A DNA stretch of 64,000 nt from positions 44,157 through 108,156 of the forward strand of contig CAMJBC010000004.1 of the NCBI GenBank assembly GCA_946403755.1, in the 5' to 3' direction. Shown piece after piece: positions 2,547 to 62,852 of the stretch; positions within the stretch are counted from its first letter, which is position 1; the number at the start of each line of letters is the position of its first letter. Origin of the DNA: an uncultured Mycoplasmatota bacterium (GTDB lineage Bacteria; Bacillota_I; Bacilli_A; RF39; UBA660). The translations under genes were made by a program, and so were the position numbers. The notes below the pieces were generated by a model. The model made no database searches. It had not been told where the DNA came from and saw nothing but the letters and a program-made list of their open reading frames with translations.

Positions 2547-4067
2547 TTATTCTATTACCTTATTAATTATACCAGCACCAACTGTTCTACCACCTTCACG
2601 AATAGAAAAATATGTTCCTTTTTCTATTGCCATTGGAGTGATTAATTCAACAGTCATATCAACATTGTCACCAGGCATAACCATTTCAGTACCTTCTGGT
2701 AATGTAACTACGCCAGTAACATCAGTTGTTCTAAAATAGAATTGTGGTCTATAGTTATTGAAGAACGGGGTATGACGTCCACCCTCTTCTTTAGATAATA
2801 TATATACAATAGCATTAAATTTTTTATATGATTTAATGCCACCTGGAACACTTAAAACTTGTCCACGCTCAACATCTTCTCTATTAATACCACTAAGAAT
2901 TATACCTACAGTATCACCAGCTACAGCTTTATCTGTTGTTTTTTGAAACATTTCAACACTTGTTACAGTGGATTTTTGTGTGTCCTTAATACCAACTATT
3001 TCAACAGGATTATTTACACTAATTTTACCTGTTTCAACACGACCTGTAACAACAGTTCCACGTCCTGTAATAGTAAACACATCTTCAATGCCCATTAAGA
3101 ATGGTTTTTCCTCTTTTGTTTGAGGACTTTCTATCCATTTATCTGTTGCTTCTATTAACTGCTTAACAGCATTAGTATCATTTGCTTTTCCAACAGTCAT
3201 TGGTGTAGCATTTGGATCAAAATTATAACTCTTTAGCAATTCTTTTACATCATCTTTCACAAGATTTATTGCACTATCATTTGATACATCATCATTTATA
3301 TATATTGAAACTTTTGATGCTCCTACTTTATTTAATATAGATAATTCTTCTCTCAATTGTGGTTGTATCCCAGCTGAAGCTTTTACAACTAATATAGCTC
3401 CATCTACTTCAATTCTACCTGTAATAGCTGATTTTACAAAATCTGCAAACCCACAATTATATGAAAAATACATTTTTCTACTTCCAACACTAATTTTTAC
3501 ACGTGTTAAATTTGTTAAAATGCCATTATCTACAGATCCAGCACATTTTTCAATGTCAGAAGCACTTACTTCTTTTCCATAAACTTTTGTAACTGTTGAT
3601 AATACTTCTTCTTTACCACTATTCACGTCACCAGTAAAAAATAAAGATAAATAGTCTTTGCTTCCCTTAACAAATGTATTACTTTCTGGGCTAGTAATAT
3701 TATTTAAATTATTATTGTTACTAGAATTATTATTTGTATTATCATTATTTTGAATATTGTTTTGATTTGTATTTATATTATTATTTTCTTTAGTTTTATT
3801 ACCATTCATTTTTAAAACTAATACTATTATTACAATTACCAATACTGCTATAACAGCTATAAAAATTATTGTATTATTTTTCTTCTTTTCTCCAACATTA
3901 TTTGAATTATCATTATTTGTATTACTCATTGGAGTAACACTTTCAATATTATTTTGAATAGATTCATTATTTTGAACCACTTCACCATTATTTTGAATTT
4001 GTTCTTGGCCAGGTGCATTATTTGTAACTGGTTCACTATTATTTTGATTAAAATTATTATCTTCCAT
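2547..4067 (-). CDS. Membrane-anchored EF-Tu paralogue with degenerate G motifs (pseudo-GTPase)
   Basis: Preferred start is ATG 4067 (RBS AGAGGA 5 nt upstream) rather than the track start 4097, which overlaps dtd. Order of parts: Asn-rich head, TM helix IIFIAVIAVLVIVIIVLVL, Asn-rich linker, EF-Tu-like body. G1 is GDVNSGKE (tuf GHVDHGKT), G3 is NCGFA (DCPGH), G4 is INDD (NKCD). Domains II/III are about 140/186 identical to the tuf at 24351-25520 by hand alignment. Confidence 0.85.
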   Translation of the reverse strand: MEDNNFNQNNSEPVTNNAPGQEQIQNNGEVVQNNESIQNNIESVTPMSNTNNDNSNNVGEKKKNNTIIFIAVIAVLVIVIIVLVLKMNGNKTKENNNINTNQNNIQNNDNTNNNSSNNNNLNNITSPESNTFVKGSKDYLSLFFTGDVNSGKEEVLSTVTKVYGKEVSASDIEKCAGSVDNGILTNLTRVKISVGSRKMYFSYNCGFADFVKSAITGRIEVDGAILVVKASAGIQPQLREELSILNKVGASKVSIYINDDVSNDSAINLVKDDVKELLKSYNFDPNATPMTVGKANDTNAVKQLIEATDKWIESPQTKEEKPFLMGIEDVFTITGRGTVVTGRVETGKISVNNPVEIVGIKDTQKSTVTSVEMFQKTTDKAVAGDTVGIILSGINREDVERGQVLSVPGGIKSYKKFNAIVYILSKEEGGRHTPFFNNYRPQFYFRTTDVTGVVTLPEGTEMVMPGDNVDMTVELITPMAIEKGTYFSIREGGRTVGAGIINKVIE

Positions 4068-4080
4068 TTTTATCCTCTTT

Positions 4081-4530
4081 TCATTTAAATAACTCATTAC
4101 TATCTAAAACAATAGTAACTGGTCCATCATTATATATTTCTACTTTCATATCAGCACCAAATATTCCTGTTTCTACTATTACATATTCTCTTAGTTTTTC
4201 ATTGAACATATCATATAATTTAGTAGCTTCAGCAGGATTTAATGCTTCTGTGAAAGATGGACGTCTTCCTTCTTTACAATTAGCATATAAAGTAAATTGA
4301 CTAATACTTAATATACTTCCATTAACATCAAGAATACTTAAATTTATTTTACCTTGATCATCTTCAAATATTCTTAAGTTAACTATTTTATTAACCATTT
4401 TATCTATAATAGCTTCATTGTCACCTTCAGTAAAGCCTACAAGAACTACATATCCATGATCAATTTCTCCATTTACTTTACCATCTATTGTAACTTTACT
4501 TTTTTTACTTCTTTGTATTACTGCTCTCAT
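4081..4530 (-). CDS. dtd: D-aminoacyl-tRNA deacylase
   Basis: 149 aa reading MRAVIQR...VVLVGF...SQFTLYA...GRRPSF...GPVTI, typical of Dtd. TAATG overlap with the rel stop, the classical rel-dtd pairing. Ends in TGA. Confidence 0.9.
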   Translation of the reverse strand: MRAVIQRSKKSKVTIDGKVNGEIDHGYVVLVGFTEGDNEAIIDKMVNKIVNLRIFEDDQGKINLSILDVNGSILSISQFTLYANCKEGRRPSFTEALNPAEATKLYDMFNEKLREYVIVETGIFGADMKVEIYNDGPVTIVLDSNELFK

Positions 4531-9314: not shown

Positions 9315-12092
9315 ATGGCACTAGTAAAATTAAATTCAATAAATGATATAATTGGCAAAAAAGCTGGTACTTATAATATACCATTTAAGTGTAATGGTAG
9401 AAACTACACTTTTATTATAACTATAGGCAATAACATTGATAGCAATACTAGTATTACTCTTCAAGGGTATGGCCAAGGTGGTAATGGAAATAGCGTTTTA
9501 CAACATTTAAATACTGGTGGCAATAATATAGACGTAATCGTACAAGCTGGTCAAGGTGGTAATGCTTATGAATCATCAGGATGGCAAGATGCTACAACTA
9601 GTTTTATTCAATCATTATCAAAAAAATTAAATTTAAATAAAAATAATACTGTTTTAACAGGGTTTAGTTTAAGTGCAGAAATGACTGCTAAATATGCTGC
9701 ATCATTTGCTAAAAAAACAGGAGCAAATAATTTTTGTGCTGTAATTACTGAATCTTCTTGGGGTGCTCCTTTAAAATTAAGTGAAAGTGAAAGAAAATCT
9801 TTAATAAATAATAATGTTACTCTATTTAACGTATATCAAAATAAAAATCGTAGTTTAACAAGCCATGTATCAAATACCAATGGTGTTCATATTATTGATG
9901 TTAATATTAAACATTCTGGTGGAGACATGCATGCTTTACCATATTTATTATTGATGAATAAAGGTATCAATAATATAGCTAATGGTAAATTTAATTTTAC
10001 TTCTCTTCCAAAAACATTTAAATATTATGGACAAAATGTAAAATTAGACTATGAATTTATTGAACATTATGTTAATAAAAATGGAAAATATGTTAGTAGA
10101 GTTTTAAGTGCTGAAGAAGTACAACAAAAAGTTGATGAAATGTATAAAGCAAATCTTGAGTCACTTTATAAAAATAATAAAAATTTATCAGAATTTGCTC
10201 AAAACTTTACTGATGGTATTGGTACTAACCTAGCATCAAATCTTTCATATGTATCAAATGCTATGAATTCCTTAAAAGGAAAAATAACTAGTCATTCAGA
10301 CTTAAATTATACAAAAGGATCTAGTAATGAAGCTGGAATAATTGGTGCTATGTATTCAGCAACTAATTATTATGGCGCAGTTACTAATGTATTATATGGA
10401 AATTTAAGTTCTGAAGCAGATGCAGTATATGCAATAGCAAATGCTATATATCAAATGGATGGATGTGCTGCTGTAATAGCAGATGAAACTCTAACTAATG
10501 GTGTTAGTAGTTTATTTAACTCACCTAACCTTTCTTCACAATTAAATGCATTAAAAAATACTACTGCAAACTTAGTTAATACTGCTAAAAACGCTGTTAT
10601 GGCTAATGGTAGATATGCTGAATTATCAAACTTATTAACTGGAAGTATAACAGCTGGTAACGTTGGAAAAATAAGTATTACTGCTTTAGAAAGTGCAGTA
10701 AACTCTGTTATTCCATCATTAAATAATGAAGTAGAAAAAGCTCAAGGATTAAAATCTAGTGTTGATGAATTCATGAGTGGAATTGGTTCATCTAATATAT
10801 TACAAGGTGGAGTTTGGAATGATGTTAAGACAAACATGGAATCATACCAAAACTTACTAGATTGTAATATGAAAGCATCTAGTTTTATATCAGATACTAT
10901 TAAAACTGCTATGGGAGTTGTAGTAGACTACATTAATGGATCATCTGATGCTATTAGTGCTGTATCAGGAACAGATTATAGTAGTTTAGTAACAGCTGGT
11001 GAACTTGATGATTCTAAATTACCTCAAATACAAGCATTACTTGAAGAAATAGATAAACAAGTTAACATTGTAAAATCAACCATAACTGAGATGGAAAATG
11101 CTAAGGAACAATCTTGCTCAACCCCAATAGGTACAGAAGCACCATCTTGTGTATGGGTAAATAAATATAGTTCATCAGATATACAACCATTTAGAGATTC
11201 ACTTACAAAATATGAAACTGAGCAAGCTGCATTAAATGCATATTCAGCTAGATTAGAAGGTTTAGCACCACTAGTTGAAAATGCACAAAAAATGATTAAT
11301 GATGCTATAAGTCAAGTTAAGAATATGTATGAAAATCCAGTAACAAATGCACAAGGAAATCAAACATTTAATGCTGACTTTAAGCTAGATATGAGTGCAT
11401 ATAAATTTGAAAAAGATGGATCATATTATAAAAATTTAATAAATGATTATTATGATAAATTAAATTCAAAAACTCCAGATGAGGTTACACCTACAGCTGA
11501 TTATGATAGTGGTTCTTCTTATGGGGATGAATATTATGGTGGTAATAATACTCCTACTCCAACACTTGAACCAACTACTGAAGAACCTACAATAATGATT
11601 GAAGTAATAACTGAAGTTCCTTCAGAGGTTGCTAGTTTTGATGAAATATTTGAACCATCCACTGAAATTGCTACAACATATTCTGAAGTAACAACTGAAA
11701 TATCTTATGATACAGAACCTGTTATTCAAAATAATGTAGAAAATAAAGTCATTGGAAATAATAATAAAAGACAAACTAATACTAATATAGAAACTCCTAC
11801 TATACCTGTTGAAATTCCTCCTGAAGAAATTAAAGAAGTTCCAATGGAAAATGAATATTCTGGAAATAGTGATTATGTTGAAGAAATAATAACACAACCA
11901 GAAATAATAGAAATTCATGAAGAACCTATTGTTGAAGAAACTATAAACATAGATACTGATAGAACAGTTAAAACAATGGGTGTCGCTGCTAGTATAGGAG
12001 TAGCACTTGGAGCAGTTAGTCTTGGTGCTCATTCAATAATTAAAAATAAAAATAATGAAGATGAAGAATCTGATTATGGATATGATAAATAA
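9315..12092 (+). CDS. 925-aa protein without a signal peptide: N-terminal alpha/beta-hydrolase-like domain, LXG/WXG-like helical module, P/T/E linker, C-terminal TM tail anchor
   Basis: Nucleophile-elbow-like VLTGFSLSAEM. The helical module (aa 305-716) is collinear with aa 720-1112 of the 1347-aa ORF. C-terminal TM KTMGVAASIGVALGAVSLGAHSII followed by KNKNNEDEESDYGYDK. Confidence 0.8.
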   Translation: MALVKLNSINDIIGKKAGTYNIPFKCNGRNYTFIITIGNNIDSNTSITLQGYGQGGNGNSVLQHLNTGGNNIDVIVQAGQGGNAYESSGWQDATTSFIQSLSKKLNLNKNNTVLTGFSLSAEMTAKYAASFAKKTGANNFCAVITESSWGAPLKLSESERKSLINNNVTLFNVYQNKNRSLTSHVSNTNGVHIIDVNIKHSGGDMHALPYLLLMNKGINNIANGKFNFTSLPKTFKYYGQNVKLDYEFIEHYVNKNGKYVSRVLSAEEVQQKVDEMYKANLESLYKNNKNLSEFAQNFTDGIGTNLASNLSYVSNAMNSLKGKITSHSDLNYTKGSSNEAGIIGAMYSATNYYGAVTNVLYGNLSSEADAVYAIANAIYQMDGCAAVIADETLTNGVSSLFNSPNLSSQLNALKNTTANLVNTAKNAVMANGRYAELSNLLTGSITAGNVGKISITALESAVNSVIPSLNNEVEKAQGLKSSVDEFMSGIGSSNILQGGVWNDVKTNMESYQNLLDCNMKASSFISDTIKTAMGVVVDYINGSSDAISAVSGTDYSSLVTAGELDDSKLPQIQALLEEIDKQVNIVKSTITEMENAKEQSCSTPIGTEAPSCVWVNKYSSSDIQPFRDSLTKYETEQAALNAYSARLEGLAPLVENAQKMINDAISQVKNMYENPVTNAQGNQTFNADFKLDMSAYKFEKDGSYYKNLINDYYDKLNSKTPDEVTPTADYDSGSSYGDEYYGGNNTPTPTLEPTTEEPTIMIEVITEVPSEVASFDEIFEPSTEIATTYSEVTTEISYDTEPVIQNNVENKVIGNNNKRQTNTNIETPTIPVEIPPEEIKEVPMENEYSGNSDYVEEIITQPEIIEIHEEPIVEETINIDTDRTVKTMGVAASIGVALGAVSLGAHSIIKNKNNEDEESDYGYDK

Positions 12093-18225: not shown

Positions 18226-19935
18226 CTAACTTTCCATTCTACTTAGAAGTTTTTTATAGATTCCAGGTTCTATAATATTTAGAGCATTCAAAACAGTCTC
18301 TAAAGATGTTTTATAATCACCTTTATAGAATGCTTTTTCTGCTTCTTTTAGTCCTGTTTCTACTTCTTTATTACTTGATCTATATCTATTACCATAAACA
18401 ATAGCCATTTCTGCCATAGCAGCTGTTTTTATTGTTTCTGATGCTGTTTGATATAATTTTAATGATAAATCTCTTGATGTATCTACTCTTAAATTTAATG
18501 TTTTAATAGATATTGGTTTCTTTTCTATTTCAACATTTATTTCTCTTACTGAATCATAAGCTTCTTTTAATTCAATATAAAATCTTTCAGGAATAATTGG
18601 TAAATTATATTCTTTAATCTTATATTTAGAATTATTAATAATATTTTTAATTTCAAATAATTGTTCTCTAGCTCTAGCCTCATCTTCTTTAAGACTTCCT
18701 AAATTTTTAAGTGTTGTTTCTAATTTATCTTCTACTTTTGATAAATTAACAGCAACTAACTCACATTCATTAGCAAGTTTAGAATATGGCATTACTTTCG
18801 CTAAAGTTCTATCATTAATTAATTTAAAACTATCTTTTACTTCAATTAATTCTTTATTTATTTCATCTATTACTTCTATTTCATCATCATTAAGATCATA
18901 TGTATCTTTAATATTATCTATTTCTGCATATAAATTTCTAACTATACTACTTGTTTTAGATAATCTATCACTAATATTAATGATACCTCTTTCATATTCT
19001 TTTTTACCACGTTTTTCAGCATCAAAATCACTATATAGTCCTTCATAATAATCTAATAACGTTTTTAAATCAAAGATTGAATCTTGTAGATTTAAAACAT
19101 TTAATCTATCCATTATTTCACCAATAGTTTTATTAGTTTCTTCAATATTATAATCAATATTTAAATATTCTAAATTATATCCATCTCTAGTTAATTTAGT
19201 ACTTATAGTTTTAATATCATTCATCTTCTTAGGTAAAATCATAGTGGCCATCATAACTATAGTTGGTGCTTCTTCTATAACTATACTAATATTATTAATC
19301 ATATCATCTAATACTTTAACTATTTTAGATAATTCTTCATATTCTTTATTTTGAATTGCCACTTCAAAAGCACTAAATAATTTATCTATATTTTCAAATT
19401 GTAATTCTATTCTAGAAGATACTTCTTGATAATCATTTTTATTTTTATTATATTTGAATACAACTTCTCTATATATACTTTTTAATTTAGTAACAGCTTC
19501 TCTATTTCTATCTTCACTTTCAGTTAATTCTTTTATTTCACCTAATAATTTAATAGATTTAGCTTTAACTCTTAATATATTCTTTTCACATTGTTCTAAT
19601 TTATCTAAAGATTCATTATATTGTTTATCCATTAATGAAGTTTCTATATCAACTAATTCATCAGTTAAACTTGGTAAATCTTTATTTTCTATTTCATCAA
19701 ATCTTTCATGCCATTCAGCAACTTCTTTTTCAGTCTTTTTATTATTAACTAACTTCTCTGCTTTAGCAAGTTCAGTTATTAAAGAAGATGAAATAATTAG
19801 ATTCTTTTCAGTAGTTAATCTATCTATATTACGAAGGACATTTTTCTTTTTCTTATTTTTTAAAAGATATTTTATTCCAAAATAAAGAATAACAGCTAAT
19901 AAAATAATAACTATGATTATAACTGCTTTTCTCAT
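18226..19935 (-). CDS. ezrA: Septation ring formation regulator EzrA
   Basis: 569 aa. A single N-terminal TM helix followed by long coiled-coil repeats. Size and architecture are typical of EzrA. Confidence 0.7.
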   Translation of the reverse strand: MRKAVIIIVIILLAVILYFGIKYLLKNKKKKNVLRNIDRLTTEKNLIISSSLITELAKAEKLVNNKKTEKEVAEWHERFDEIENKDLPSLTDELVDIETSLMDKQYNESLDKLEQCEKNILRVKAKSIKLLGEIKELTESEDRNREAVTKLKSIYREVVFKYNKNKNDYQEVSSRIELQFENIDKLFSAFEVAIQNKEYEELSKIVKVLDDMINNISIVIEEAPTIVMMATMILPKKMNDIKTISTKLTRDGYNLEYLNIDYNIEETNKTIGEIMDRLNVLNLQDSIFDLKTLLDYYEGLYSDFDAEKRGKKEYERGIINISDRLSKTSSIVRNLYAEIDNIKDTYDLNDDEIEVIDEINKELIEVKDSFKLINDRTLAKVMPYSKLANECELVAVNLSKVEDKLETTLKNLGSLKEDEARAREQLFEIKNIINNSKYKIKEYNLPIIPERFYIELKEAYDSVREINVEIEKKPISIKTLNLRVDTSRDLSLKLYQTASETIKTAAMAEMAIVYGNRYRSSNKEVETGLKEAEKAFYKGDYKTSLETVLNALNIIEPGIYKKLLSRMES

Positions 19936-19956
19936 ATTTCCTTATCCTCCTTATAC

Positions 19957-19967
19957 ATTTTATCACA
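19957..19967 (-). promoter_or_regulatory. Extended -10 promoter TGTGATAAAAT for ezrA
   Basis: The minus strand reads ATATGTGATAAAATGTATAAGGAGGATAAGGAAATATG, giving a very short leader. Confidence 0.45.
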
Positions 19968-19995
19968 TATTATTGTTTTTTTAAAGTTTTTGACA

Positions 19996-20024
19996 TAAAA
20001 AAAGAGAAATATAATTTCTCTTTT
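19996..20024 (-). terminator. Rho-independent terminator after the sigma factor gene
   Basis: AAAGAGAAAT-ata-ATTTCTCTTT hairpin followed by a T-run on the minus strand. Confidence 0.65.
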
Positions 20025-20032
20025 ACACTTAA

Positions 20033-21397
20033 TTAGAAATAAACATTTGAAGTCCAAGTTTTAGATTTATTAAGTCTTGGAACAAAACCACTTTTTTCTT
20101 CTCTCTTTGGAAGTTCTGGAACAACTGGATTATTTTGTGGTTTATTAAAGTTTCTATATGCTTTAGGTGTAGCTTCACTACGTTCTTCAAATCTTTCTCT
20201 AAATTTACTATTTCTTCTTAATTTTCTTATAGCTTTATTCTCAACTTGTCTAACATTTTCTCTTGTACAACCTAATTCTTGACCCACAGCTTCTAAAGTC
20301 ATAGGTCCTCCTTCTCTACCTATTCCAAATCTTAACATAAGAATTTTTCTTTGTTTATCAGTAAGAACAGTAGGATCCATTAATATTTCTCTTAAATCTT
20401 TAGCATCCATTTCTTTCATTGCATCTTCTTCTAGATTATAATCAGCACTAAATGTATCTCCTAAAGTCATATCACTATCTTCCATATCACCAACTTTTTG
20501 GTCCATAGAAGCAACAACTGTTGCAAATGATAATAATTCTCTTACTCTATCTTCTTCTAAATTAAATTCAGCAGCTATTTCTTCAACAGTTGGATCACAT
20601 CCACATAATGTATTATATTGTTTTATCCAAAAATCAATTTTATTATATACTTCACACATATGAACTGGAATTCTAATAGTTCTTGATTGATCTGCTATTG
20701 CACGAGTAATACCTTGTCTAATCCACCAAGTAGCATAAGTTGAAAATTTATAACCTTTAGTATAATCAAATTTATCAGCAGCATCAAAAAGTGCCATATT
20801 TCCTTCTTGAATTAAATCATCAAATTCTAAACCTCTACCAATATATCTTTTAGCACGAGATACTACTAATCTAAGATTACTTTCAACAAATTTGTTTCTA
20901 GCGTATTCTCTTTGAGTTTTGTTTCCTTCATTCATCATACGGCCATAATATAATTCACCTTCAGGTGTTAACATTTTAGTTTGATCCATATCTTGAAAAT
21001 AATATGAAAGATTATTTTCTTCTCTATATATACCGCTTTTTGAACCTTGTTTAGTACTTTCAAAGCTTTCTTTTTCTTCTTCTTCGAATTCATCTTTTAC
21101 TTCAATGTTGTTTCTTCTACAATATTCTAAATATAATGTATATATATTTTCATCATCTAGTTCTTGATTTCTTTTAGATGAATAAATACATCCCATTGTT
21201 CTATTTAATAATGGACAATTATCTAATAATATAGCAGCATCTTCTAAAGATAAATTAATTACTACTTCAACATCTTGTGCTTCATCTTTAACAGCTAAAA
21301 ATGTGACAAGTCTTCTAATATTATATAGATAATCTTTAGGACTATTCATCTTAAATTTTGCGTTAACAAATTCTATTATTTTATTAATATCTAACAT
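20033..21397 (-). CDS. Sigma-70 family factor, group 1/2-like, with non-canonical N-terminal domain and C-terminal extension
   Basis: Regions 2-4 are clear: NLRLVVSRAKRYIGRG, DLIQEGNMALFDAADKFDY, YATWWIRQGITRAIADQSRTIRIPVHM and TLEAVGQELGCTRENVRQVENKAIRKLR. The first ~130 aa are unlike region 1.1. A basic tail of about 45 aa extends past region 4.2. Confidence 0.8.
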   Translation of the reverse strand: MLDINKIIEFVNAKFKMNSPKDYLYNIRRLVTFLAVKDEAQDVEVVINLSLEDAAILLDNCPLLNRTMGCIYSSKRNQELDDENIYTLYLEYCRRNNIEVKDEFEEEEKESFESTKQGSKSGIYREENNLSYYFQDMDQTKMLTPEGELYYGRMMNEGNKTQREYARNKFVESNLRLVVSRAKRYIGRGLEFDDLIQEGNMALFDAADKFDYTKGYKFSTYATWWIRQGITRAIADQSRTIRIPVHMCEVYNKIDFWIKQYNTLCGCDPTVEEIAAEFNLEEDRVRELLSFATVVASMDQKVGDMEDSDMTLGDTFSADYNLEEDAMKEMDAKDLREILMDPTVLTDKQRKILMLRFGIGREGGPMTLEAVGQELGCTRENVRQVENKAIRKLRRNSKFRERFEERSEATPKAYRNFNKPQNNPVVPELPKREEKSGFVPRLNKSKTWTSNVYF

Positions 21398-21434
21398 TTC
21401 TATGCCCCCTTTTTAAAGCGAATAAATTATACCA

Positions 21435-21466
21435 CAAAAAAAGAGAAAAGTCAATTATTTCTCTTA
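21435..21466 (-). terminator. Rho-independent terminator after the 80-aa ORF
   Basis: AAGAGAAAA-gtcaatt-ATTTCTCTT hairpin plus a T-run on the minus strand. Confidence 0.55.
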
Positions 21467-21473
21467 TTTTAGC

Positions 21474-21716
21474 CTATAATGTATGAGTATGAAGTTCATC
21501 TTCAGATTCTATTCCAAGTCCTTTTTGCATTTCAGAAGTCATAACATTTAACATATGTGAAGCTATTGCTCCAGCTTTTTGTGTTTCTTCTAAATCATTT
21601 TCAAACTGTTTATTTTTAGCATCAAATGCATTTTTTAGAGCACTAATTTGTTCTGGAGTTAAATCATCTTTTCGAACTCCAAAGTTTCTATTTAGGTAGT
21701 CTTCAAAATTCTCCAT
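21474..21716 (-). CDS. Small acidic hypothetical protein (80 aa)
   Basis: Clean ORF followed by a terminator. No recognisable motif. Confidence 0.45.
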   Translation of the reverse strand: MENFEDYLNRNFGVRKDDLTPEQISALKNAFDAKNKQFENDLEETQKAGAIASHMLNVMTSEMQKGLGIESEDELHTHTL

Positions 21717-21795
21717 AATAAAAGCCTCCTTGTCTTATAACTCTATTTTACCATATTTAGGGTTATTTTTGAGTAAGAAGGCATAAACTTTACAC

Positions 21796-22977
21796 TTATT
21801 TCTTAATAGTTTTATATGCTATTAAAAGAAGTATTATTTGAATAGTTGTTGTAATTGCTGCTCCTAAGAATATATTTTTAAATGCACTAACAATTAATAC
21901 GCCTGCTAAGAAAGCTCCAATACCCTCTCCTATGCAAGCAACAAAATATCTAATATTTCCAAATAAGAATTGATCTTCATTTTTAACTCTTTGTAAAAAT
22001 GTACCTGTTGATTTATCTTCAAGTAATCTAGATGTAATGTAAGATACTACTATTGATATTATAAATGCATTTATATCTTCAGTTAAATATGCAATTATAA
22101 ATGTTAATAATCTTGTTCCAAATTTAATAAATATACCAAGGTTAAAACTAATCTTTTTACTAAATTTATTAAACATTGAACAAAATACACTACCTAAGAA
22201 ATTACATACTATTATAAATATTGATGCTATTGAAACTTCAAAATTAATATAGGATTCACCTGTTAATATAAGCATCATTAAATCAAATATTATTCCATAT
22301 GATATATCTATAAATAATACACTTATTAAATATATTCTATTTGTTTTATCTTTTAAAATATTTTTAAATGATTTTAATAAAGCTCCATGTTCTTGACTTA
22401 TTTTTTCATTAGCTTTAAAAAATAACAAAAATAATCCACTTAATGTGTTAGCAATTAATGCTATTATTAAACAACCTTGATATGTTAATAATGGAATATT
22501 ATGAATGCTAATTCCAAGTAATATACCACATCCTATAATACCTATATCTCTAGCTATATAATCTACTAAAGATTTCTTTTTAAACATTTCATCACTTTTA
22601 TTAACATATGCAAGAAGTGGATAATAACTAACACTAAATATTACTTCACACATTACTGTTAATAATATTCCTATTTTTATTACAAAAATATCTTTAGTAA
22701 AAAATAAAACTATCATAGCTAATAATCTAATAAATATAGATTCTATTATTACATTTTTAATCTTAATTTTAGATGAAAATAAACTAATTATAAAAGATAT
22801 TACAGCACTGCATATTAAAGCAACAGAAAATATTCTGCTTATATCTGTTAAACTAAATAATCTATCTTTAAGCCATAATTGTCTATAATTACCCCATATT
22901 CCCATAGAAAAAGACATTAAAAATAGAACAATTAGTATTAATCTTTCATTTCCTATTTTATTAATCTTTTCTGTCAT
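21796..22977 (-). CDS. Polytopic membrane protein, MFS-transporter-like
   Basis: 393 aa, about 10-12 hydrophobic helices throughout. No catalytic motif recognised. Confidence 0.5.
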   Translation of the reverse strand: MTEKINKIGNERLILIVLFLMSFSMGIWGNYRQLWLKDRLFSLTDISRIFSVALICSAVISFIISLFSSKIKIKNVIIESIFIRLLAMIVLFFTKDIFVIKIGILLTVMCEVIFSVSYYPLLAYVNKSDEMFKKKSLVDYIARDIGIIGCGILLGISIHNIPLLTYQGCLIIALIANTLSGLFLLFFKANEKISQEHGALLKSFKNILKDKTNRIYLISVLFIDISYGIIFDLMMLILTGESYINFEVSIASIFIIVCNFLGSVFCSMFNKFSKKISFNLGIFIKFGTRLLTFIIAYLTEDINAFIISIVVSYITSRLLEDKSTGTFLQRVKNEDQFLFGNIRYFVACIGEGIGAFLAGVLIVSAFKNIFLGAAITTTIQIILLLIAYKTIKK

Positions 22978-24350: not shown

Positions 24351-25520
24351 TTATTCTAAAATTTCAGAAACTACACCAGCACCAACTGTTCTACCACCTT
24401 CACGAATTGAGAAGTTTGTTCCGTTTTCAATTGCGATTGGAGTGATTAATTCAACAGTCATATCAACATTGTCACCAGGCATAACCATTTCAGTACCTTC
24501 TGGTAATGTAATTACACCAGTAACATCAGTTGTTCTAAAGTAGAATTGTGGTCTGTAGTTGCTGAAGAATGGAGTATGACGTCCACCTTCTTCTTTAGAT
24601 AATACATAAACGCTAGCTTTGAATTTCTTATGTGGTGTAACACTACCTGGTTTACATAGAATTTGTCCTCTTTCAACATCTTCTCTGTTAATTCCACGAA
24701 GTAAAACTCCAGCATTATCTCCAGCTTCAGCATAATCTAAAGATTTTCTGAACATTTCAATACCAGTAACAACTGTTTTTCTAGTATCTCTAATACCAAC
24801 AATTTCAACTTCATCGTTAAGATTTAATCTACCTCTTTCAACACGACCTGTAACAACAGTTCCACGTCCTGTGATAGTAAATACATCTTCAATGCTCATT
24901 AAGAATGGTTTTTCTGTATCTCTTACTGGAGTATCAATCCATGTATCAACAGCAGCCATAAGATCTTTAATAGGTTGTACCCATTTTTCATCTCCTTCAA
25001 GAGCCTTAAGAGCTGAACCACGAATAACTGGAGTATTGTCTCCATCAAATCCGTATTCATTTAATAATTCTCTAACTTCCATTTCTACTAAATCAAGAAG
25101 TTCTGCGTCATCAACCATATCACATTTATTGATGAATACTACCATTTTTGGTACACCAACTTGACGTGATAATAAGATGTGCTCTCTAGTTTGAGGCATT
25201 GGACCATCTGTAGCAGAAACTACTAAGATAGCTCCATCCATTTGAGCAGCACCAGTAATCATATTTTTTACATAGTCTGCGTGTCCTGGACAGTCAACGT
25301 GAGCATAGTGACGTTTGTCAGTTGAATACTCAACGTGAGCAGTATTAATAGTAATACCTCTTTCCTTTTCTTCTGGTGCTTTATCGATTTGATCATAAGC
25401 CATAAATTCACCAAAATATTTAGTAATAGCAGCTGTTAATGTTGTTTTACCATGGTCAACGTGTCCAATAGTACCAATATTAACATGTTCTTTAGAACGA
25501 TCGAATTTTTGTTTTGCCAT
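24351..25520 (-). CDS. tuf: Elongation factor Tu
   Basis: Canonical [21 protein letters not shown] and SALKA motifs. 389 aa. Last gene of the str operon. Confidence 0.98.
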
Positions 25521-42112: not shown

Positions 42113-43279
42113 ATGGATACTAAAAAGTTATTACTCATTTGTGGTGGTATTGTTGGTGGCTTTCTTATTCTATTATTAGTTATATGGCTAATATCTTTAT
42201 CAAAACCAAGATACATTACATATGAAGCATTAGAAGCAAAGATGGTTGCAGCTTCTAAAAATTATGTTAAAGATAATGAAAGTAAATTTGCTAATGATAA
42301 TGCTAGATATAATTTAGGTTATCAAACTTTAGTAGCAGGTGAATATATTAAACCTATAGATGAACTAATTGAAGATTATGAAAAATGTTCAGCTACAGTT
42401 ACAATTATTAAAACTAATGGAGAATATTCATATGTACCATATTTAAATTGTGGTGATAAATATACTACTGTTGAATTGTATAAGCAAATATTAAATGATA
42501 ATAAAACTGTTACAAGTGGTAGTGGTTTATATAGAGATGCTAATGGTACCTATTATTTTAAAGGTAAAAATTTAAATAATTATGTAGCATTTGGTTCTAT
42601 GGAAAAAAGAAATAAAATGATAGATAACATATGGCAAATAATTAGTATATCTAATGACCATACAGTTAAATTAAGAGCAACATTTGCTATTAATGATACT
42701 AAAACTCAATGGGATGATAGATATAATGTTACTGAAGATAAATATGTTGGATATAACTTATTTGATGATAGCATTATTCAAGAAATATTAACAAATACAT
42801 ATGAAAAGAAATATATATTAAATGAAGAACAAAGATCAAAATTAGTACCTAGACGTTTATGTGTAGCGCCAAGAGCTGTAGAAGATCCTTCTAAAGATGG
42901 TTCTACAGAATGTTCTGTATTAAGTAAAAAATATTATTATTTCAGTACTCTTACTCCATATGAAATAATAAGAATAAGTACTGATGAAAATTGTAAGGAT
43001 ATGTCAAGTTATTCATGTTCTAACTTTAACTACTTATCTCAAAATAGTCAAAGTGAAGAATGGTTAATAACTTCAGCTATCGGAACTGATTACCAAGCTT
43101 GGGCTTATGATGGATTCTCATTTAATCCTGTTAAAACAAAAAATACTAAGAATTTATACTTAGTAATTGAATTAAATGAATATTCATTCTATAAAACTGG
43201 TGATGGTTCACTTGAAAATCCTTATAGATTGAAATTATCTTCTGAAACAAAAGAAACTGAAGAAAAAACTGAAAAATAA
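42113..43279 (+). CDS. Signal-anchored surface protein of unknown function
   Basis: TM helix LLLICGGIVGGFLILLLVIWLISL followed by an extracellular Cys-containing domain. Ends ...GDGSLENPYRLKL. Confidence 0.55.
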   Translation: MDTKKLLLICGGIVGGFLILLLVIWLISLSKPRYITYEALEAKMVAASKNYVKDNESKFANDNARYNLGYQTLVAGEYIKPIDELIEDYEKCSATVTIIKTNGEYSYVPYLNCGDKYTTVELYKQILNDNKTVTSGSGLYRDANGTYYFKGKNLNNYVAFGSMEKRNKMIDNIWQIISISNDHTVKLRATFAINDTKTQWDDRYNVTEDKYVGYNLFDDSIIQEILTNTYEKKYILNEEQRSKLVPRRLCVAPRAVEDPSKDGSTECSVLSKKYYYFSTLTPYEIIRISTDENCKDMSSYSCSNFNYLSQNSQSEEWLITSAIGTDYQAWAYDGFSFNPVKTKNTKNLYLVIELNEYSFYKTGDGSLENPYRLKLSSETKETEEKTEK

Positions 43280-43282
43280 AAA

Positions 43283-45130
43283 CTATTGAAATGTTTCAAT
43301 AGTTTTTTTATCGTCTATTGTTTGTTGCATTGACTTAGCAACTTGTGGTGCATTACTGTTAGTTCCAGTTACTTTAACAAACCATTGATTAGTAACAGAA
43401 ACATTATTAGATGTTGGCGTTGGATTTGGTTTGTCTATCTTGGCATATACAGGCATTTTAAAGGCTGTACCAAAGCACATTGCTGTTCCTGAAGTCAATG
43501 TCTTTAATTTATCAATATCGTGCTCAGAAACGCTATGAGTAATGCTTTTAATGATACTTAAATCATCTGGATGGAACATACGAAGTACTATATAGTTTGA
43601 ACATTGACTAAGTGCAGTTGTTGATAATTCACTAGGTCTTTGTGTTACTAAACCAAGTAATACACCATATTTTCTACCCTCTTTAGTAATTCTATCAAAT
43701 ATATTATATCCAAGGACTTCTAAATCACTATCATTCTTAACATATCTGTGTGCTTCTTCTAAAATAATATCTACTGAGAACTCTGAATTATCAGATAAAG
43801 TAACAGCATAATCTAAGAATATTTTTGAATATAATTTTGTTAATGTTTTAGCAAATCTTTCATCAACATAGTTTAAGTTGAAGTTAACAATTTGTACTTT
43901 TTCTCCTGAAGGAGAAGTAAATAATCTTTTAATAAAATCCGCTTTTGTTATATATTCATCTACTTCAAAATATTTACCATAATTACCATGAATAATACTA
44001 TCTAATCTAACTTTTAATACATTATTCATATCATACACAGTATCACTTTTTAATACACCTTCACTAATAAGTGCAAATTCAAATGCATTATACAAATCTT
44101 TTAAACCATAGAATTTAGGTTTCATATCACTTGATAATGAAAGTTCTGTATTAATAAATGATTCTAAGAATTCTGTTACTAATTGAATAGTATTTAATTT
44201 ACCTGTTGCATCTATATTTAAACATTGCATCAATGTTCTAACATATCCAGGTTGAGCTATCTCACTATTTAAATTTAAATCAGCTGTATTAAATGTAGTT
44301 AAAACTGCTATAATTTGATCCCTTATTTGAGTAGAGTTTCTACCACTAGTTAAAATATCTAATGCTGCTTTAGCAATAATATTGTTTTTATATGCTCTAA
44401 CCTTTTCTTCTTCTTCAGTAAATAAATATACATATTTTAATGCTTTTTCAATTAGAGGAAGTTGCATAGGACTAGTAGCATTTAATAATAAAGCTATATC
44501 ATCTACTTCTAATAAATATGGTGGTATTTTTACTATATTATCAAATGATTTAGAAGTATCTGTAGTTAAATATTTACATCTACAATAATCAGTTCTATTA
44601 ATCATATCTAAAGCTACATGATATTCACCATATATATCAAATAAAGCAAAACGAGAGTTTATAGGAACATTCTCTCTTCTATAAAATAGGTTTTGAAATA
44701 ATCTTGCTACCGTACATGATTTACCACTACCAGAGTTACCTATAATTGCAAAGTGGTTTGAAAATAATTCGTTTATATCTGCTGATACATTGAATCCTTC
44801 ATAAGTGATATTTTTACCAATATATAAACTATTAGGAGTATCAATTGATTGTTCACCAAGTAAATTAATAACTTCTTCTTTACCAACTGGTCTTATTTCA
44901 GAGTTAGGAGATATTTTATGTTCTAAACCACCTTGGAATTCTCCATCTATAAATTCTCCAACTAAAAGACATGTGATAGTTTTATCATCTACTGCTGAAA
45001 TTTCTCCTACTATTTTATATTTTTCTTCAAAAACTACATGAACACCTAAAATAGATGTTTGTACTTTACCACTTATATTTTCAACTTTTACTGAGTCTTC
45101 AGTAATTTCTAGTATTCTACCAAATAACAT
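43283..45130 (-). CDS. HerA-like (DUF87, FtsK-HerA superfamily) P-loop ATPase
   Basis: N-terminal HAS-barrel-like region, Walker A IIGNSGSGKS, Walker B IILEEAHRY, and LVTQRPSEL. It has its own promoter-like TATGATATAAT and RBS AGGAGG. Confidence 0.7.
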   Translation of the reverse strand: MLFGRILEITEDSVKVENISGKVQTSILGVHVVFEEKYKIVGEISAVDDKTITCLLVGEFIDGEFQGGLEHKISPNSEIRPVGKEEVINLLGEQSIDTPNSLYIGKNITYEGFNVSADINELFSNHFAIIGNSGSGKSCTVARLFQNLFYRRENVPINSRFALFDIYGEYHVALDMINRTDYCRCKYLTTDTSKSFDNIVKIPPYLLEVDDIALLLNATSPMQLPLIEKALKYVYLFTEEEEKVRAYKNNIIAKAALDILTSGRNSTQIRDQIIAVLTTFNTADLNLNSEIAQPGYVRTLMQCLNIDATGKLNTIQLVTEFLESFINTELSLSSDMKPKFYGLKDLYNAFEFALISEGVLKSDTVYDMNNVLKVRLDSIIHGNYGKYFEVDEYITKADFIKRLFTSPSGEKVQIVNFNLNYVDERFAKTLTKLYSKIFLDYAVTLSDNSEFSVDIILEEAHRYVKNDSDLEVLGYNIFDRITKEGRKYGVLLGLVTQRPSELSTTALSQCSNYIVLRMFHPDDLSIIKSITHSVSEHDIDKLKTLTSGTAMCFGTAFKMPVYAKIDKPNPTPTSNNVSVTNQWFVKVTGTNSNAPQVAKSMQQTIDDKKTIETFQ

Positions 45131-45206: not shown

Positions 45207-48200
45207 TTATTTTTCATAACCGTAGTCAGCATCTTCATCATCGTCTTCTCTACTCTTGATGATTGTATGTGCTCCAAGAGCACTAGCTCCTACTGCTAAA
45301 CCTATTCCAGCTGCGATACCCATTGTCTTAATACCATTGTTTTTCTTAACAGGTTCTGGTTCTGTTGGTATATCTATATCTATATCGTATTCATCAATAC
45401 TTGGCTCTTCAATTATTGGCTCTTCATATTCATCAATACTTGGTTCTTCAATAATTGGTTCAGTTTCAATTGGTAATTCCTCAGTTGGTGTTTCTACTGG
45501 AAGTGTTGGATTTTCATCAACTGGATCTTTTGGTTTCTTATTTGATCCGCCACCGCCACCAGGTTTTTTCTTACCAGGTTTATTTGTTGGAGGTTCTGTT
45601 GCTTCAGTTGGAGGTTCTGTTGCCCCTGTTGGAGGTTCAGTTCCTTCAGTTGGAGGTTCTGTTGCCTCTGTTGGAGGTTCAGTTGCTTCTGTTGGAGGTT
45701 CTGTTTCCTCTGATGGAGGCTCTGTTGTTGATGGTGGCTCTGTTGTTGTAGAAGGTTCAGGTGTATCTGGTCCTCCAATTGGTCCAGTATAAGTATCATC
45801 GTCATCGTCATCATCGTCATCATCATTACCAGTTGTTGGTTCATCTTGACCAGTTGTTGGCTCATCTTGTCCAGTTGTTCCTTCAGTTGCTGGAGGAGTT
45901 TGACCTTCTGCTTCAGCTTTTACTTTATCATAGAAATCTTTAAATATTTGATTGAAGTCAGTGCCTTTAGCTAGTCCATACGCTGATAAATCTACTTGTA
46001 ATGTATTAAATGATTTATTATTTTGAACAAAGCCTACAGGATCTGCATATGCAGCCTTAATTTGGTTAACAGCATCTAAAATTACATTTTGTGCTTCAGT
46101 TAATACAGCTGATAGTCCTCTTAATTTTTCTACTAATTTTGTTAATTCATCAAATACAGTTTTTGCATTATCAAGTGCTGCTTTAGCAGCTCCTACATCT
46201 GGACAAGTTACTGCTGGAGAAATTACTGTTCCATCAGTTGCAACTTCTGCTGCTTTTGGTACGCAAGATAATGCTGCTTGATATGCTGCTTCTGCATCAT
46301 TATATGCTGTTTCTGCTTCTTTCAAAGCTTGTTCTTTTGCTTCTAATTCACTATCATCTAATGAATCATAATCACCCATGTATGCGATAATTATGCCCAT
46401 AGCTGTTTGCATAGCTTCTTGTAAGAATTCAGCAGATTGTTGACTAACTTTTAACATATCTTTATATGTTGCAAGATTTGTTGCTACATCTTCCCAAACT
46501 CCACCTGCTAATAAATTTCCAGCTCCTATTCCAGCCATGAAGTCATCTACGCCTTGAGATAAAGCTTTAGCTCTATCTATTTCAGCATCTAAAGTTGGTG
46601 TGATTGCAGATACTGCTGCTTTAAGGGCATCTACACTAATCTTTCCAGATTTTCCGGCTTCTAATTGTTGAGTTAATGTATTTGCTAATTCATCATATCT
46701 TCCGCCTGCATTTAATGCTTCTTGAGACATGCTTAATTGTAACGCATCAGATGCAGCTTGTAATCTATCTAATTGATCGCGCATTCCAGGATTATCAGCA
46801 TTATATAAATCTGTCATTCCTTGAGATAATGTTGAATCAGCTAAAAGTGCAGCACATTCATCCATTTGATAAATTAAGTTAGCTATTCCATAAATTGCAT
46901 CAGCTTCTGCGCTTAAATTATCATATAATCTATTAGTTACAGCACCATAATAATTAGCTGCTCCATATAAAGCTCCTACTACAGAAGCTTCATTATCAGA
47001 TCCTTTTGTATATTGTAAATCATTATGAGCACCTATTTGACCTTTAATACTTTGCATGTGATCGCTAACAAAGCATAAGTTAGATGCTAATGTTTTATCA
47101 TCTTTAGTTGCATATCCTGATGAGAAAGAACTTAATGATGGTTTTGTTTTAGTATCTTCGACTGTTACTCCATCTTCATTAATAATTTCAATTACAGTCT
47201 CATTATCATAATATGTTCTTCTTTCTATTTTTCCTGTTACTGGATCTTTAACTTCTACTGTTCTAGCATATTTTTCAATTAATCCATCTTTATTATAAAC
47301 AATTTGTGTTGTTACTATACCATGTCCATTGTCTTCTGTTGTTACAACAGTCTTATTTCCTTCTGCATCTCTTGTTACAGTTGTAGTTGATACAGTAACT
47401 CCACCTTTGGCAACAGATGTTTCTTCACTAATAATTTCGCCTTTATCATTTGTTTTAATAATTGTTGTTTGTTTATATTCATTTTCTGTATCCAAGTTAA
47501 TAGCTTGAGTTGTTTCAGTTGTTGTTACTCCATTTGTTGTGATAGTTCTTGTAACTGAAACTGAACCGTCTTCTTCTAATGTGATTTTTTCAGTTAGTTC
47601 TCCATCTGGAGTATCATATATATTTGTTTGTACTGTTGCTTTTGATCCGTCATTTCTTACTATATCTTGAGTATCAGATTTTTTAGGAGTAGTGTTAGGA
47701 GCTAGTGACCCCTCAGGATTTTCCTCTGTTGAAACTTCCCCAGTAGGTACTTCCTCTGTTGAGACTTCCCCAGTAGGTGTTTCCTCTGTTGGAACTTCCC
47801 CAGTAGGTGTTTCCTCTGTTGGAACTTCCCCAGTAGGTATTTCCTCTGTTGGAACTTCTTCTACTGGAGTTTCTGCAGGGATGACTGCAGCATCTCTTTC
47901 TAAAGCATACTCAGGGTCAGTTTCTGCTAATGCTGCTATAAAATTATCAGCATTATACGTACGTGTTACAGGTGCTCCTGATCCTGATTCATATGTTGTT
48001 ATTGTTCCACCTACTAGGCGTCCATTTTGATCATAAGTTGAAACTACTACTCTATCATTGCTGGTATTATCCCACATGTTTCCACCTAAAAATCCATTGC
48101 TATCATTTCTATGATAAAATTGTGTTGTTACTGTTGTTTGTTGTGTTTCCGGATCAACATAAAATATCTCTCTTGCTACAACTTCTCCACTATCATGTCT

Positions 48201-57079: not shown

Positions 57080-57331
57080 TTAAATTAATATCAATCTAGT
57101 TCCATTTTTAATATTTGTATTTTTTATTACTACATTCATATCATACAGTTCTCCAGTAGTTTTACCCATTATTACTGGTTCTCTTCTTTCATAAAAGTCA
57201 TCAGATAATTCAGGTAAAGCTTTTTTTAGAACTGTTATTAAATCATGTATTCTTCTATCTATTGGAACTAATAATTCATATTTTTTATCCAAAACTGGCA
57301 TTTCTACAATTACATATACTCTAAAATCCAT
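57080..57331 (-). CDS. esaB: YukD/EsaB-like ubiquitin-fold T7SS accessory protein
   Basis: 83 aa. The beta-grasp-like pattern ends ...IKNGTRLILI. RBS AGGAGGG overlaps the essC stop. Size and position next to essC are typical. Confidence 0.65.
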   Translation of the reverse strand: MDFRVYVIVEMPVLDKKYELLVPIDRRIHDLITVLKKALPELSDDFYERREPVIMGKTTGELYDMNVVIKNTNIKNGTRLILI

Positions 57332-57340
57332 ATAACCCTC

Positions 57341-61897: not shown

Positions 61898-61929
61898 CTA
61901 ATAAACTCCCTCTTCTTCTTTTTTATTAT

Positions 61930-62421
61930 TTAATCTTCATCATTATACATTCTTTTTAATTCTTCCATGGTTTTTTCCATATCAGATTTTTCTACTTCAG
62001 TATTTCTTTCTACTGATGGAACTTCTGTTTGTTCTTCATATAAATGTTCTTTTTCATCTTGTTCTCTATATAATTGTTTTCTTTCTCTTTCTGCTGCATC
62101 TTTAGCATCATATAATTCTTTTAATTCTTTTTTAGCATCTTCTTTTTGATCATCTATATTAGACATAACATTTCTTAAATACATTTTATTGCTATCACTA
62201 ATATCTGCTAGTTTTCTTTCTATTTTGTTACCTTTCATAGAGGCACCAAGTAATTCTACACACTTTTCAACACTTTTAGATAAAGATGCAAAACCTTCTT
62301 CTAGAGTGTTTAGTGTTTTCATTTTTTCTTTGTTACTATCTATTCGGTTATCAATATTATTTATCTTAATTTTATTAACATAAATTCTATTGTCTGCTAC
62401 TTTTAAATCAGTATCATCCAT
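61930..62421 (-). CDS. Acidic coiled-coil protein in the T7SS locus (possible adaptor or substrate)
   Basis: 163 aa with no TM helix and heptad-like Lys/Glu-rich sequence. First gene after the post-esx terminator and promoter. Confidence 0.55.
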   Translation of the reverse strand: MDDTDLKVADNRIYVNKIKINNIDNRIDSNKEKMKTLNTLEEGFASLSKSVEKCVELLGASMKGNKIERKLADISDSNKMYLRNVMSNIDDQKEDAKKELKELYDAKDAAERERKQLYREQDEKEHLYEEQTEVPSVERNTEVEKSDMEKTMEELKRMYNDED

Positions 62422-62454
62422 AGTGCACCTCTATTTTATTCCATTATTAATTCC

Positions 62455-62465
62455 ATTGTATCACA
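62455..62465 (-). promoter_or_regulatory. Extended -10 promoter TGTGATACAAT for the 163-aa/essC/esaB unit
   Basis: The minus strand reads AAAAATGTGATACAATGG, about 30 nt before the start at 62421. Confidence 0.45.
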
Positions 62466-62474
62466 TTTTTTACA

Positions 62475-62504: not shown

Positions 62505-62516
62505 TATTTTTTTTGA

Positions 62517-62831: not shown

Positions 62832-62852
62832 TTTTAAATTCCTCCTTACTTA

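Follow-up and report, generated by a model that had tools for sequence, protein, structure and literature searches.

Type VII secretion in Firmicutes is now seen as toxin delivery, with an N-terminal LXG domain on the toxin, small partner proteins and immunity genes. In the LXG toxins of the type VIIb system (PF04740; TelA-C, YxiD and EsaD-type toxins), a conserved helical targeting domain with an L-x-G turn stands at the N-terminus and variable toxin domains stand at the C-terminus, hydrolase fusions among them (TelC is an example of a hydrolase-type toxin domain). These toxins have no signal peptide, a genome can hold several paralogues, and the genes lie with Lap and immunity genes in type VII secretion system (T7SS) and immunity islands. 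TslA and TslM/Tsl2 of Staphylococcus aureus are 'reverse' T7SSb lipase toxins, for which an N-terminal lipase is experimentally established (PMC10730906, PMC13560087), and TslM has been described as 'only the second' reverse family (PMC13560087). TelE, EsxX and TspA are LXG effectors with a C-terminal glycine-zipper region that depolarises membranes (PMC10434224, PMC12744356), the zipper pattern being defined there as (A/G/S)xxxGxxxG (PMC12744356). The subject here is a pair of genes in a 64,000-nucleotide stretch of DNA (the window) from an uncultured Mycoplasmatota bacterium (assembly GCA_946403755.1, contig CAMJBC010000004.1, positions 44,157 to 108,156, forward strand). Judged by sequence, the two genes are paralogues in an uncharacterised multigene family of uncultured Bacilli with one body plan: a variable head, a helical stalk that is LXG-like in its second half, then a spacer rich in Pro, Thr and Glu, a membrane helix with a glycine zipper, and finally an acidic tail with the terminal residues DYGY(D/E)K.

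The first gene is an open reading frame (ORF) of 925 amino acids (aa) at 9315-12092 on the plus strand, with an ATG start and an AAGGAG Shine-Dalgarno sequence upstream. The second encodes 1347 aa at 45207-49250 on the minus strand and is annotated from a GTG; the ATG three codons downstream (MLKN...) is more likely to be the real start, because orthologues point there. BLASTP aligns aa 286-748 of the 925-aa protein with aa 701-1139 of the 1347-aa protein at 37% identity and 60% positives (E 2e-94). A preliminary description of this DNA had called the two giant paralogues with long collinear identity, and it was right: the identity extends over about 430 aa, and the peptides it quoted all lie inside the alignment. 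It had also described the N-termini as unrelated and free of signal peptides. BLASTP indeed finds no mutual similarity between the N-terminal parts, and inspection by eye finds no signal peptide at either N-terminus. Pfam and NCBIfam scans of both full proteins give nothing significant, and tblastn finds no third copy of the shared module in the 64-kb window. The parts of the two proteins are as follows, with the evidence in brackets.

9315-10109, plus strand: predicted alpha/beta-hydrolase (esterase/lipase-like) head of the 925-aa protein, aa 1-265 (AlphaFold2 (AF2) model, Foldseek, conserved Ser118/His206)
10188-10667, plus strand: first half of the module of the 925-aa protein, helical, aa 292-451 (family alignments)
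10668-11357, plus strand: LXG-like domain of the 925-aa protein, aa 452-681 (hhalign, Pfam LXG matches, invariant columns, AF2)
11463-11972, plus strand: Glu/Thr/Pro-rich low-complexity spacer of the 925-aa protein, aa 717-886 (composition; length and sequence vary among relatives)
11973-12089, plus strand: glycine-zipper membrane helix TMGVAASIGVALGAVSLGAHSII and acidic tail KNKNNEDEESDYGYDK of the 925-aa protein, aa 887-925 (composition, tail alignment, weak DUF883_C matches)
47151-49250, minus strand: head of the 1347-aa protein, aa 1-700, unrelated to the 925-aa head (sequence, composition, repeats)
45915-47150, minus strand: shared helical module of the 1347-aa protein, aa 701-1112 (BLASTP, E 2e-94)
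46020-46643, minus strand: LXG-like part of the 1347-aa protein, about aa 870-1077, with the turn NLLAGGVW at aa 912 (alignment positions)
45210-45914, minus strand: spacer (aa 1113-1308), glycine-zipper helix (aa 1309-1331, nucleotides 45258-45326) and tail KSREDDDEDADYGYEK of the 1347-aa protein, aa 1113-1347

The module belongs to a family that can be followed well beyond the window. A profile search run exhaustively against 1.8 billion representative proteins, with clusters at 50% identity, returns 148 clusters of relatives; in about 25 of these the protein is full-length (900-1150 aa) and likewise has module, spacer, helix and tail. No family member carries a name from its source in the cluster look-ups. 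The search also gives two kinds of weaker match: proteins of about 200 aa that cover profile positions of about 190-410 from their own N-terminus, and proteins of 700-900 aa that match through their extreme C-terminus.

The short proteins are what ties the second half of the module to the LXG domain. Six of 31 match Pfam LXG (PF04740) at E <= 0.001, and one of them, P0115, reaches 36.4 bits where the cut-off is 26.5. In a profile comparison with hhalign, aa 452-681 of the 925-aa protein align with the short LXG-like set, from residue 3 of the short proteins, at 99.7% probability (E 5e-27), the set having been picked with the family's own profile. Individual family members also match PF04740 below its threshold (12 of 51, best E 3.6e-4), and four of the 51 have weak matches to WXG100; neither window protein matches PF04740 at E <= 1. 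The family alignment shows that L496, G498 and W501 are invariant in 51 of 51 sequences. In an AF2 model of aa 1-716 of the 925-aa protein, made with the 51-sequence alignment (predicted local distance difference test score, pLDDT, 87.3; predicted template modelling score, pTM, 0.70), the turn L496-Q-G498-G-V-W501 sits between helices at 455-492 and 500-542, and beyond it the domain has two further long helices and a small beta-hairpin that bears Cys601 and Cys612. This model supersedes an earlier one from nine sequences (pLDDT 70), with which Foldseek found non-significant helical-bundle matches only. PDB sequence searches with the module, the LXG-like set and the full family profile gave no significant match. 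From the Pfam matches of the short proteins, the hhalign result, the sub-threshold matches of individual members and the invariant L/G/W turn we conclude, at the level of profiles, that this half of the module is remotely homologous to the LXG domain and does not simply look like it. The likeness of the L-x-G-G-x-W turn to LXG, pointed out in the preliminary description, thus reflects homology. The same description had taken the module to be all-helical; long helices are indeed its main component, and the AF2 model adds two small beta-hairpins.

The first half of the module (aa 292-451) contains the most conserved stretch in the family, NYYGxVTNxLYGNLSxEADAVYxIANAIYxMD. It has no relative in Pfam, and hhalign comparisons with the LXG-like set and with the WXG100 protein in the window both stay below 1% probability. 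The idea that this half is a Lap- or WXG100-like partner fused in cis was considered and finds no support in these results.

In the heads, the family is variable. Foldseek against the PDB places aa ~1-265 of the 925-aa protein with an arylesterase (5l2p), a feruloyl esterase (7z2v), the DPP4 catalytic domain and a polyhydroxybutyrate (PHB) depolymerase, at E about 3e-4 and probability 1.0. Ser118, in G-F-S-L-S, and His206 are each kept in 42 of 51 sequences, three family members match Pfam Esterase weakly, and PDB sequence searches give weak hints of a carboxylesterase and of RtxA-ABH (E about 0.4). The model thus identifies this head as an alpha/beta-hydrolase of an esterase/lipase-like kind, and most relatives of about 900 aa carry variants of it. 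The 925-aa protein accordingly begins with a lipase-type alpha/beta-hydrolase and has its helical LXG-like domain downstream of this. In the 1347-aa protein, the head is beta-rich, with two copies of a unit of about 130 aa, Pro/Thr-rich tandem repeats and a Thr-rich beta-repeat region; it has no Pfam match and no recognisable domain. A distant member (L002) has an N-terminal Amidase_2 domain, a peptidoglycan amidase, at 47 bits, and in three relatives (P0026, P0029, P0032) an NlpC/P60 domain after the module replaces the anchor. That the heads act outside the cell is plausible: relatives have Amidase_2 or NlpC/P60 domains, the 925-aa head is esterase-like, and enzymes of these kinds mostly find their substrates beyond the membrane.

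The 1347-aa gene also contains in-frame tandem repeats at the DNA level, at 45429-45879, 47720-47858 and 48419-48678, with units of 87 bp (3 copies), 30 bp (4.6 copies), 42 bp (3.4 copies) and 21 bp (2.9 copies). They encode the Pro/Thr-rich segments and could differ in length from strain to strain. The GC content of this gene is 37% versus about 26%, and horizontal transfer was considered as the reason. It was rejected on the GC content at third codon positions (GC3), which at 0.11 is the same as in the rest of the genome. Both window genes are native, since the GC3 of both equals that of the genome.

Behind the stalk, the spacers, membrane helices and tails are as the preliminary description had given them. 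The spacer of the 925-aa protein has 170 aa (E 18%, T 14%, P 9%) and that of the 1347-aa protein 196 aa (P 20%, E 18%, T 17%). A Pro/Thr-rich stretch just before an anchor resembles the wall-spanning regions of Gram-positive surface proteins. In both proteins, a single glycine/alanine-rich helix of 23 residues (aa 887-909 and aa 1309-1331) is followed by a C-terminal tail of 16 aa, KNKNNEDEESDYGYDK in the shorter protein and KSREDDDEDADYGYEK in the longer one. The glycine zipper is A892-xxx-G896-xxx-G900, within TMGVAASIGVALGAVSLG, and an equivalent (G/A/S)xxxGxxxG is present in 71 distinct tails. Both window proteins end in DYGY(D/E)K, and DYGY(D/E/N)K is the commonest ending in the family. 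The same anchor and tail are found in every family ORF that reaches its C-terminus (62 ORFs, from the window and related loci), and none of the 62 has a signal peptide, again judged by eye. Even between members at 22-27% identity, the anchor and tail are the best-conserved parts.

The genomic distribution of the family is multi-copy and belongs to the core genome. In a one-genome-per-species scan, only one metagenome-assembled genome ('Bacilli bacterium') has members, and these are distant. A metagenome scan gives 51 loci with the family, and many of the contigs are apparently rumen-derived, as far as accession prefixes tell. There are several copies per genome; many contigs carry two, some of them in tandem. 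The gene context was read in the 53 loci first fetched (550 kb) and in about 60 overall. The 925-aa gene is always found between the pair of secDF and a post-transcriptional regulator on one side and M16 peptidases on the other, and the 1347-aa gene lies between valS and a gene for a HerA/DUF87 ATPase. Those neighbours of family genes that can be identified have housekeeping functions (SecA, UvrA, RNase Y, MgtC, ABC transporters). Beside the family genes in the roughly 60 loci, as beside either window gene, there was no Lap-like or WXG100 gene and no gene recognisable as one for immunity.

Set against the described systems, the family is a variant and not a new class, because the TslA/TslM reverse lipases and the TelE/EsxX glycine-zipper toxins are already known. 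With the LXG toxins it shares the homologous helical domain and its L-x-G turn, the missing signal peptide, the variable domains (including hydrolases) attached to a conserved targeting domain, and the several paralogues per genome. However, its LXG domain is internal (aa 452-681 of 925; about aa 870-1077 of 1347), behind a head of 265-700 aa and a helical region of 160 aa without relatives. Where LXG toxins have the toxin domain, the family has a spacer and a membrane anchor, and in contrast to theirs its genes lie outside T7SS/immunity islands, with no Lap or immunity gene adjacent. TslA and TslM are closer in domain order, having an N-terminal alpha/beta-hydrolase and then an LXG-like helical domain, no signal peptide and several paralogues per genome. 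Going by its description, TslA has a G-x-L turn, ends with the helical domain and is released, whereas the family has a forward L-x-G-x-x-W and continues into spacer, anchor and tail. TslA also needs adjacent TlaA/WXG100 partners, and the immunity proteins are TilA lipoproteins for TslA and DUF1433 membrane proteins for TslM; neither partners nor immunity genes of these kinds are near the family genes. TelE, EsxX and TspA likewise combine an LXG domain with a C-terminal glycine-zipper helix (small-xxx-small) downstream of it, which is able to sit in a membrane. In the available parts of the reports, however, their LXG domain is N-terminal, no enzyme head, long Pro/Thr spacer or DYGY(D/E)K tail is described, the zipper is a toxin and not an anchor, and there are immunity proteins (TipE, ExiAB/ExiCD, TsaI).

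Two further groups resemble the family in their membrane segment. ElaB, YqjD and YgaM (DUF883) are helical proteins with one C-terminal glycine-zipper helix and no signal peptide. The 'glycine zipper' family DUF883_C of Pfam matches 14 of 51 family members, all below the cut-off and at best with E 0.012. DUF883 proteins have about 100 aa, are cytoplasmic and have 2-3 residues after the helix, and there is no similarity to the family beyond the helix. EsaA/YueB and TsdI/TseI/TsjI are, like the family, large proteins with a C-terminal membrane helix that are thought to cross the wall. EsaA has an N-terminal membrane helix plus several C-terminal ones. TsdI, one of the envelope-spanning T7SS components TsdI/TseI/TsjI, combines a C-terminal helix with a Sec signal and Ig-like domains, and its gene is part of the T7SS locus (PMC11217815). 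The family differs from these proteins in having no signal peptide, dispersed genes in several copies, and variable, mostly enzyme-like heads. A literature search that paired 'LXG' with 'tail-anchored' found nothing. The preliminary description had held that tail-anchored T7SS cargo is not a described class, which overstated the case, given the reverse substrates and the glycine-zipper LXG effectors. What does seem undescribed so far, as far as literature searches reach, is the full combination of a head, a mid-protein LXG domain, a spacer like that of wall-spanning proteins and a conserved anchor and tail, without partner or immunity genes.

As the only candidate for an exporter in the window, the preliminary description had put forward an EssC locus at 57-63 kb. 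Its features are listed here.

57080-63158, minus strand: minimal type VII locus, candidate exporter (profile matches, reading by eye)
62853-63158, minus strand: WXG-like protein, 101 aa, the weaker of two
62517-62831, minus strand: WXG100 protein, 104 aa
61930-62421, minus strand: coiled-coil protein, 163 aa
57341-61897, minus strand: EssC with FHA and FtsK domains (TIGR03928)
57080-57331, minus strand: putative EsaB/YukD-like protein, 83 aa (by eye)

The EssC gene is real: it scores 963 bits with TIGR03928, for which the cut-off is 778. A genetic link to the family is missing from the 53 related loci. The locus is 8 kb from a family gene, between xseA/xseB and housekeeping genes, and EssA, EssB and EsaA are missing from the 64-kb window. 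The trio of coiled-coil protein, EssC and 83-aa protein is kept, again among housekeeping genes, in L057-L059 (64-70% EssC identity), and EssC and the 83-aa protein also in L060 (43% EssC identity). Among the contigs with the trio are some from the human gut that carry Spo0A too, and the EssC clade appears to be broader than the family. Directly after the EsaB-like gene, the window has a gene (53021-57016, minus strand) for a Cys-rich protein of 1331 aa with a Sec signal peptide and Listeria-Bacteroides repeats. Homologues of it follow the HerA-like ATPase gene in L031 and L041, so this gene moves between both neighbourhoods.

The best reading of the family, held tentatively and believed almost as readily as doubted, is that its members are surface proteins, mostly hydrolases, that are exported by the type VII (EssC) system and tethered in the membrane of the producing cell. 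The protein would be made in the cytoplasm without a Sec signal, and its LXG-like domain, the recognition element of type VII cargo, would direct it to the EssC translocon. Head and stalk would then be exported, while the membrane of the producer would retain the C-terminal helix and the acidic tail would remain cytoplasmic (N-out, C-in). The spacer would span the wall, and the stalk would hold the head at or past the wall surface. In this way, the 925-aa protein would display an esterase/lipase-like hydrolase, the 1347-aa protein a beta domain rich in repeats, and one relative a peptidoglycan amidase, in the role of surface enzymes and not of toxins. Export by EssC is supported by the presence in the same genome of EssC, two WXG100-like proteins and a putative EsaB-like protein, and by the fact that reverse T7SS substrates with an N-terminal lipase are established (PMC10730906, PMC13560087).

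Several observations weigh against export by EssC. EssC and WXG100 genes are absent from the 53 related loci that were fetched first (550 kb), as are family genes from the four EssC loci examined (L057-L060). In L057, where EssC is 70% identical, valS is directly followed by herA with no family gene between them; therefore the pairing of the family gene with the locus in the window is positional chance, and the family gene is an insertion or a deletion there. The LXG link runs through intermediate sequences and profile comparison, because the family members' own matches fall below the Pfam threshold (E 3.6e-4 at best). The charges beside the membrane helix leave the topology undecided, as explained below, and we know of no type VII system that lets a membrane helix out sideways into the bilayer. 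The adjacency in L057 bears on the neighbouring ATPase as well. HerA/DUF87 had been considered as a dedicated partner of the 1347-aa protein and was rejected for this reason. In the window, the 615-aa HerA/DUF87-type ATPase gene is convergent with one for a protein of 388 aa, anchored in the membrane by its N-terminus and without known domains (42113-45130). The pair is kept in at least 10 related contigs, in L057 at 19891-22903, right after valS.

The strongest competing explanation, which we nevertheless regard as unlikely, accepts the LXG domain and gives the membrane helix a different task. The proteins would be released LXG toxins of the TelE/EsxX/TspA kind, with the zipper helix as a warhead that enters and depolarises the membrane of a competitor and the hydrolase as a second toxic domain. 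The helix fits the (A/G/S)xxxGxxxG definition (PMC12744356) and has an LXG domain upstream, LXG effectors with a C-terminal glycine zipper are an established class (PMC10434224, PMC12744356), and lipase and peptidoglycan-hydrolase domains are typical of T7SS toxins (PMC10730906, PMC13560087). Yet in about 60 loci no immunity-like, Lap or WXG100 partner gene is adjacent, and the family genes hold conserved positions among housekeeping genes. Moreover, the supposed warhead and the tail are what is most conserved across paralogues, whereas in polymorphic toxins the toxin domains are the variable part. The Pro/Thr spacer of 170-200 aa and the terminal DYGY(D/E)K have no counterpart in TelE and EsxX as these are presented in the available parts of the reports. 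The missing partner and immunity neighbours and the conservation of anchor and tail argue against a polymorphic toxin warhead.

A second explanation turns the protein around. The members could be classical tail-anchored proteins with a cytoplasmic bulk (N-in, tail out), inserted post-translationally, for example by YidC. The LXG-like bundle would then not be a secretion signal but would form a scaffold close to the membrane, or would have a docking or regulatory function on its cytoplasmic side. The absence of a signal peptide and of linkage to EssC, and the weak DUF883_C matches to the ElaB/YqjD tail-anchored family (14 of 51 members, best E 0.012), agree with this. The preliminary description had argued for an extracellular bulk by the positive-inside rule, and this argument fails because both flanks of the helix carry Lys/Arg. 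Over 71 distinct tails, the six residues on the N-side have 1.8 K/R and 0.5 D/E, and those on the C-side 2.3 K/R and 2.3 D/E, a neutral bias, and the net charge of the whole tail is -4. For a tail of 16 aa, this charge would favour translocation by the membrane potential, if what is established for small acidic tails applies. The conserved Cys...Cys loop, also cited as a sign of an extracellular bulk, is real (C601/C612; loop at aa 596-616, window about 11100-11162, at the beta-hairpin of the LXG-like domain). Counted per loop, a measure that replaced an alignment-dependent, column-wise pairing test, the number of cysteines is even (0, 2, 4 or 6) in 121 of 124 members. The loop could be clamped by disulfides or could bind zinc. 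Loops with two cysteines are more easily read as disulfides, which goes against a cytoplasmic bulk; those with four read CxxC...CxC and resemble zinc ribbons, and paired cysteines are weak evidence for the outside because such forms could bind zinc. Amidase_2 and NlpC/P60 each include cytoplasmic members, which is a further point for the cytoplasmic arrangement. On the other side, long Pro/Thr-rich spacers beside an anchor typify wall-spanning segments, several kinds of hydrolase head tethered inside the cell would have no obvious role, and the strictly invariant L-x-G-x-x-W turn matches the LXG motif that is relevant to secretion. An extracellular bulk is favoured, though not proved, by the Pro/Thr spacer, the hydrolase, amidase and NlpC/P60 domains and the invariant turn. 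Classical tail anchoring is in our view rather improbable.

Pilin-like genes are another recurring neighbour. A prepilin-like gene (PF07963 N_methyl; KKGFTLVELL...) is found immediately upstream of a family gene in at least 15 loci (e.g. L007, L008, L012, L029, L050, L055), in two contexts: SecA, a 170-aa protein, the pilin, the family gene and UvrA, or NrnA, EngB, the pilin, the family gene and an ABC transporter. In L055, the gap between the pilin-like gene (3219-3713) and the family gene is 11 nucleotides, and T2SSF and a prepilin peptidase are encoded 6-9 kb downstream. Other pilin-like genes lie downstream in L004, L029 and L048 and near P0184. Proteins of 163-170 aa with a hydrophobic helix at each end and no Pfam match also recur beside family genes (L008 c10, L005 c18, L055 2670-3182), either between SecA and the pilin-like gene or directly 3' of the family gene. 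The proposal that these neighbours suggest, a different export or assembly machine such as a Com/type IV pseudopilus with the family as partner or cargo and the LXG-like fold as nothing but a stalk, is very improbable, given that pilin-like genes are absent beside both window genes and the 64 kb contain no prepilin motif at all, that many family loci have no pilin-like gene, that no known pseudopilus exports signal-less, membrane-anchored proteins, and that the adjacency may be inherited synteny because the loci come from closely related genomes.

One other gene in the window can be mentioned here. At 2547-4097 on the minus strand, there is a 516-aa paralogue of EF-Tu that keeps the three domains of EF-Tu and is extended by about 145 aa at its N-terminus. 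The canonical tuf is separate, at 24351-25520, and the paralogue has a 96%-identical copy at the same position in L013.

Export through EssC with retention in the producer's membrane can be taken one step further. It is possible, though on the whole we doubt it, that the pared-down type VII system (EssC, the putative EsaB-like protein, the coiled-coil protein and WXG100) is, in this lineage of uncultured Bacilli, a general biogenesis route for a multigene family of membrane proteins that have no signal peptide, an outside N-terminus and a C-terminal anchor. Head and stalk would pass through EssC by means of the LXG domain in the middle of the protein, the zipper helix would be released into the bilayer of the producer, and the DYGY(D/E)K tail would stay inside. 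If this were true, T7SS cargo would have a new class in this family, with surface enzymes that anchor themselves in place of released toxins, and the family would represent a new mechanism of surface anchoring in Gram-positive bacteria, in which the T7SS channel would open sideways.

For type VII secretion in Firmicutes, the family would extend the present picture of toxin delivery by an internal LXG domain, by the absence of partner and immunity genes, and by a conserved anchor after a spacer like that of wall-spanning proteins. Should export by EssC be true, the T7SS would build the cell's own surface, with stalked esterases and peptidoglycan hydrolases, and would not only serve to attack neighbours, and this would raise the question of how a membrane helix leaves the channel. 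In any case, the family offers a way into the surface biology of uncultured Bacilli whose metagenomes seem to come from rumen and gut and whose EssC locus is unusually minimal.

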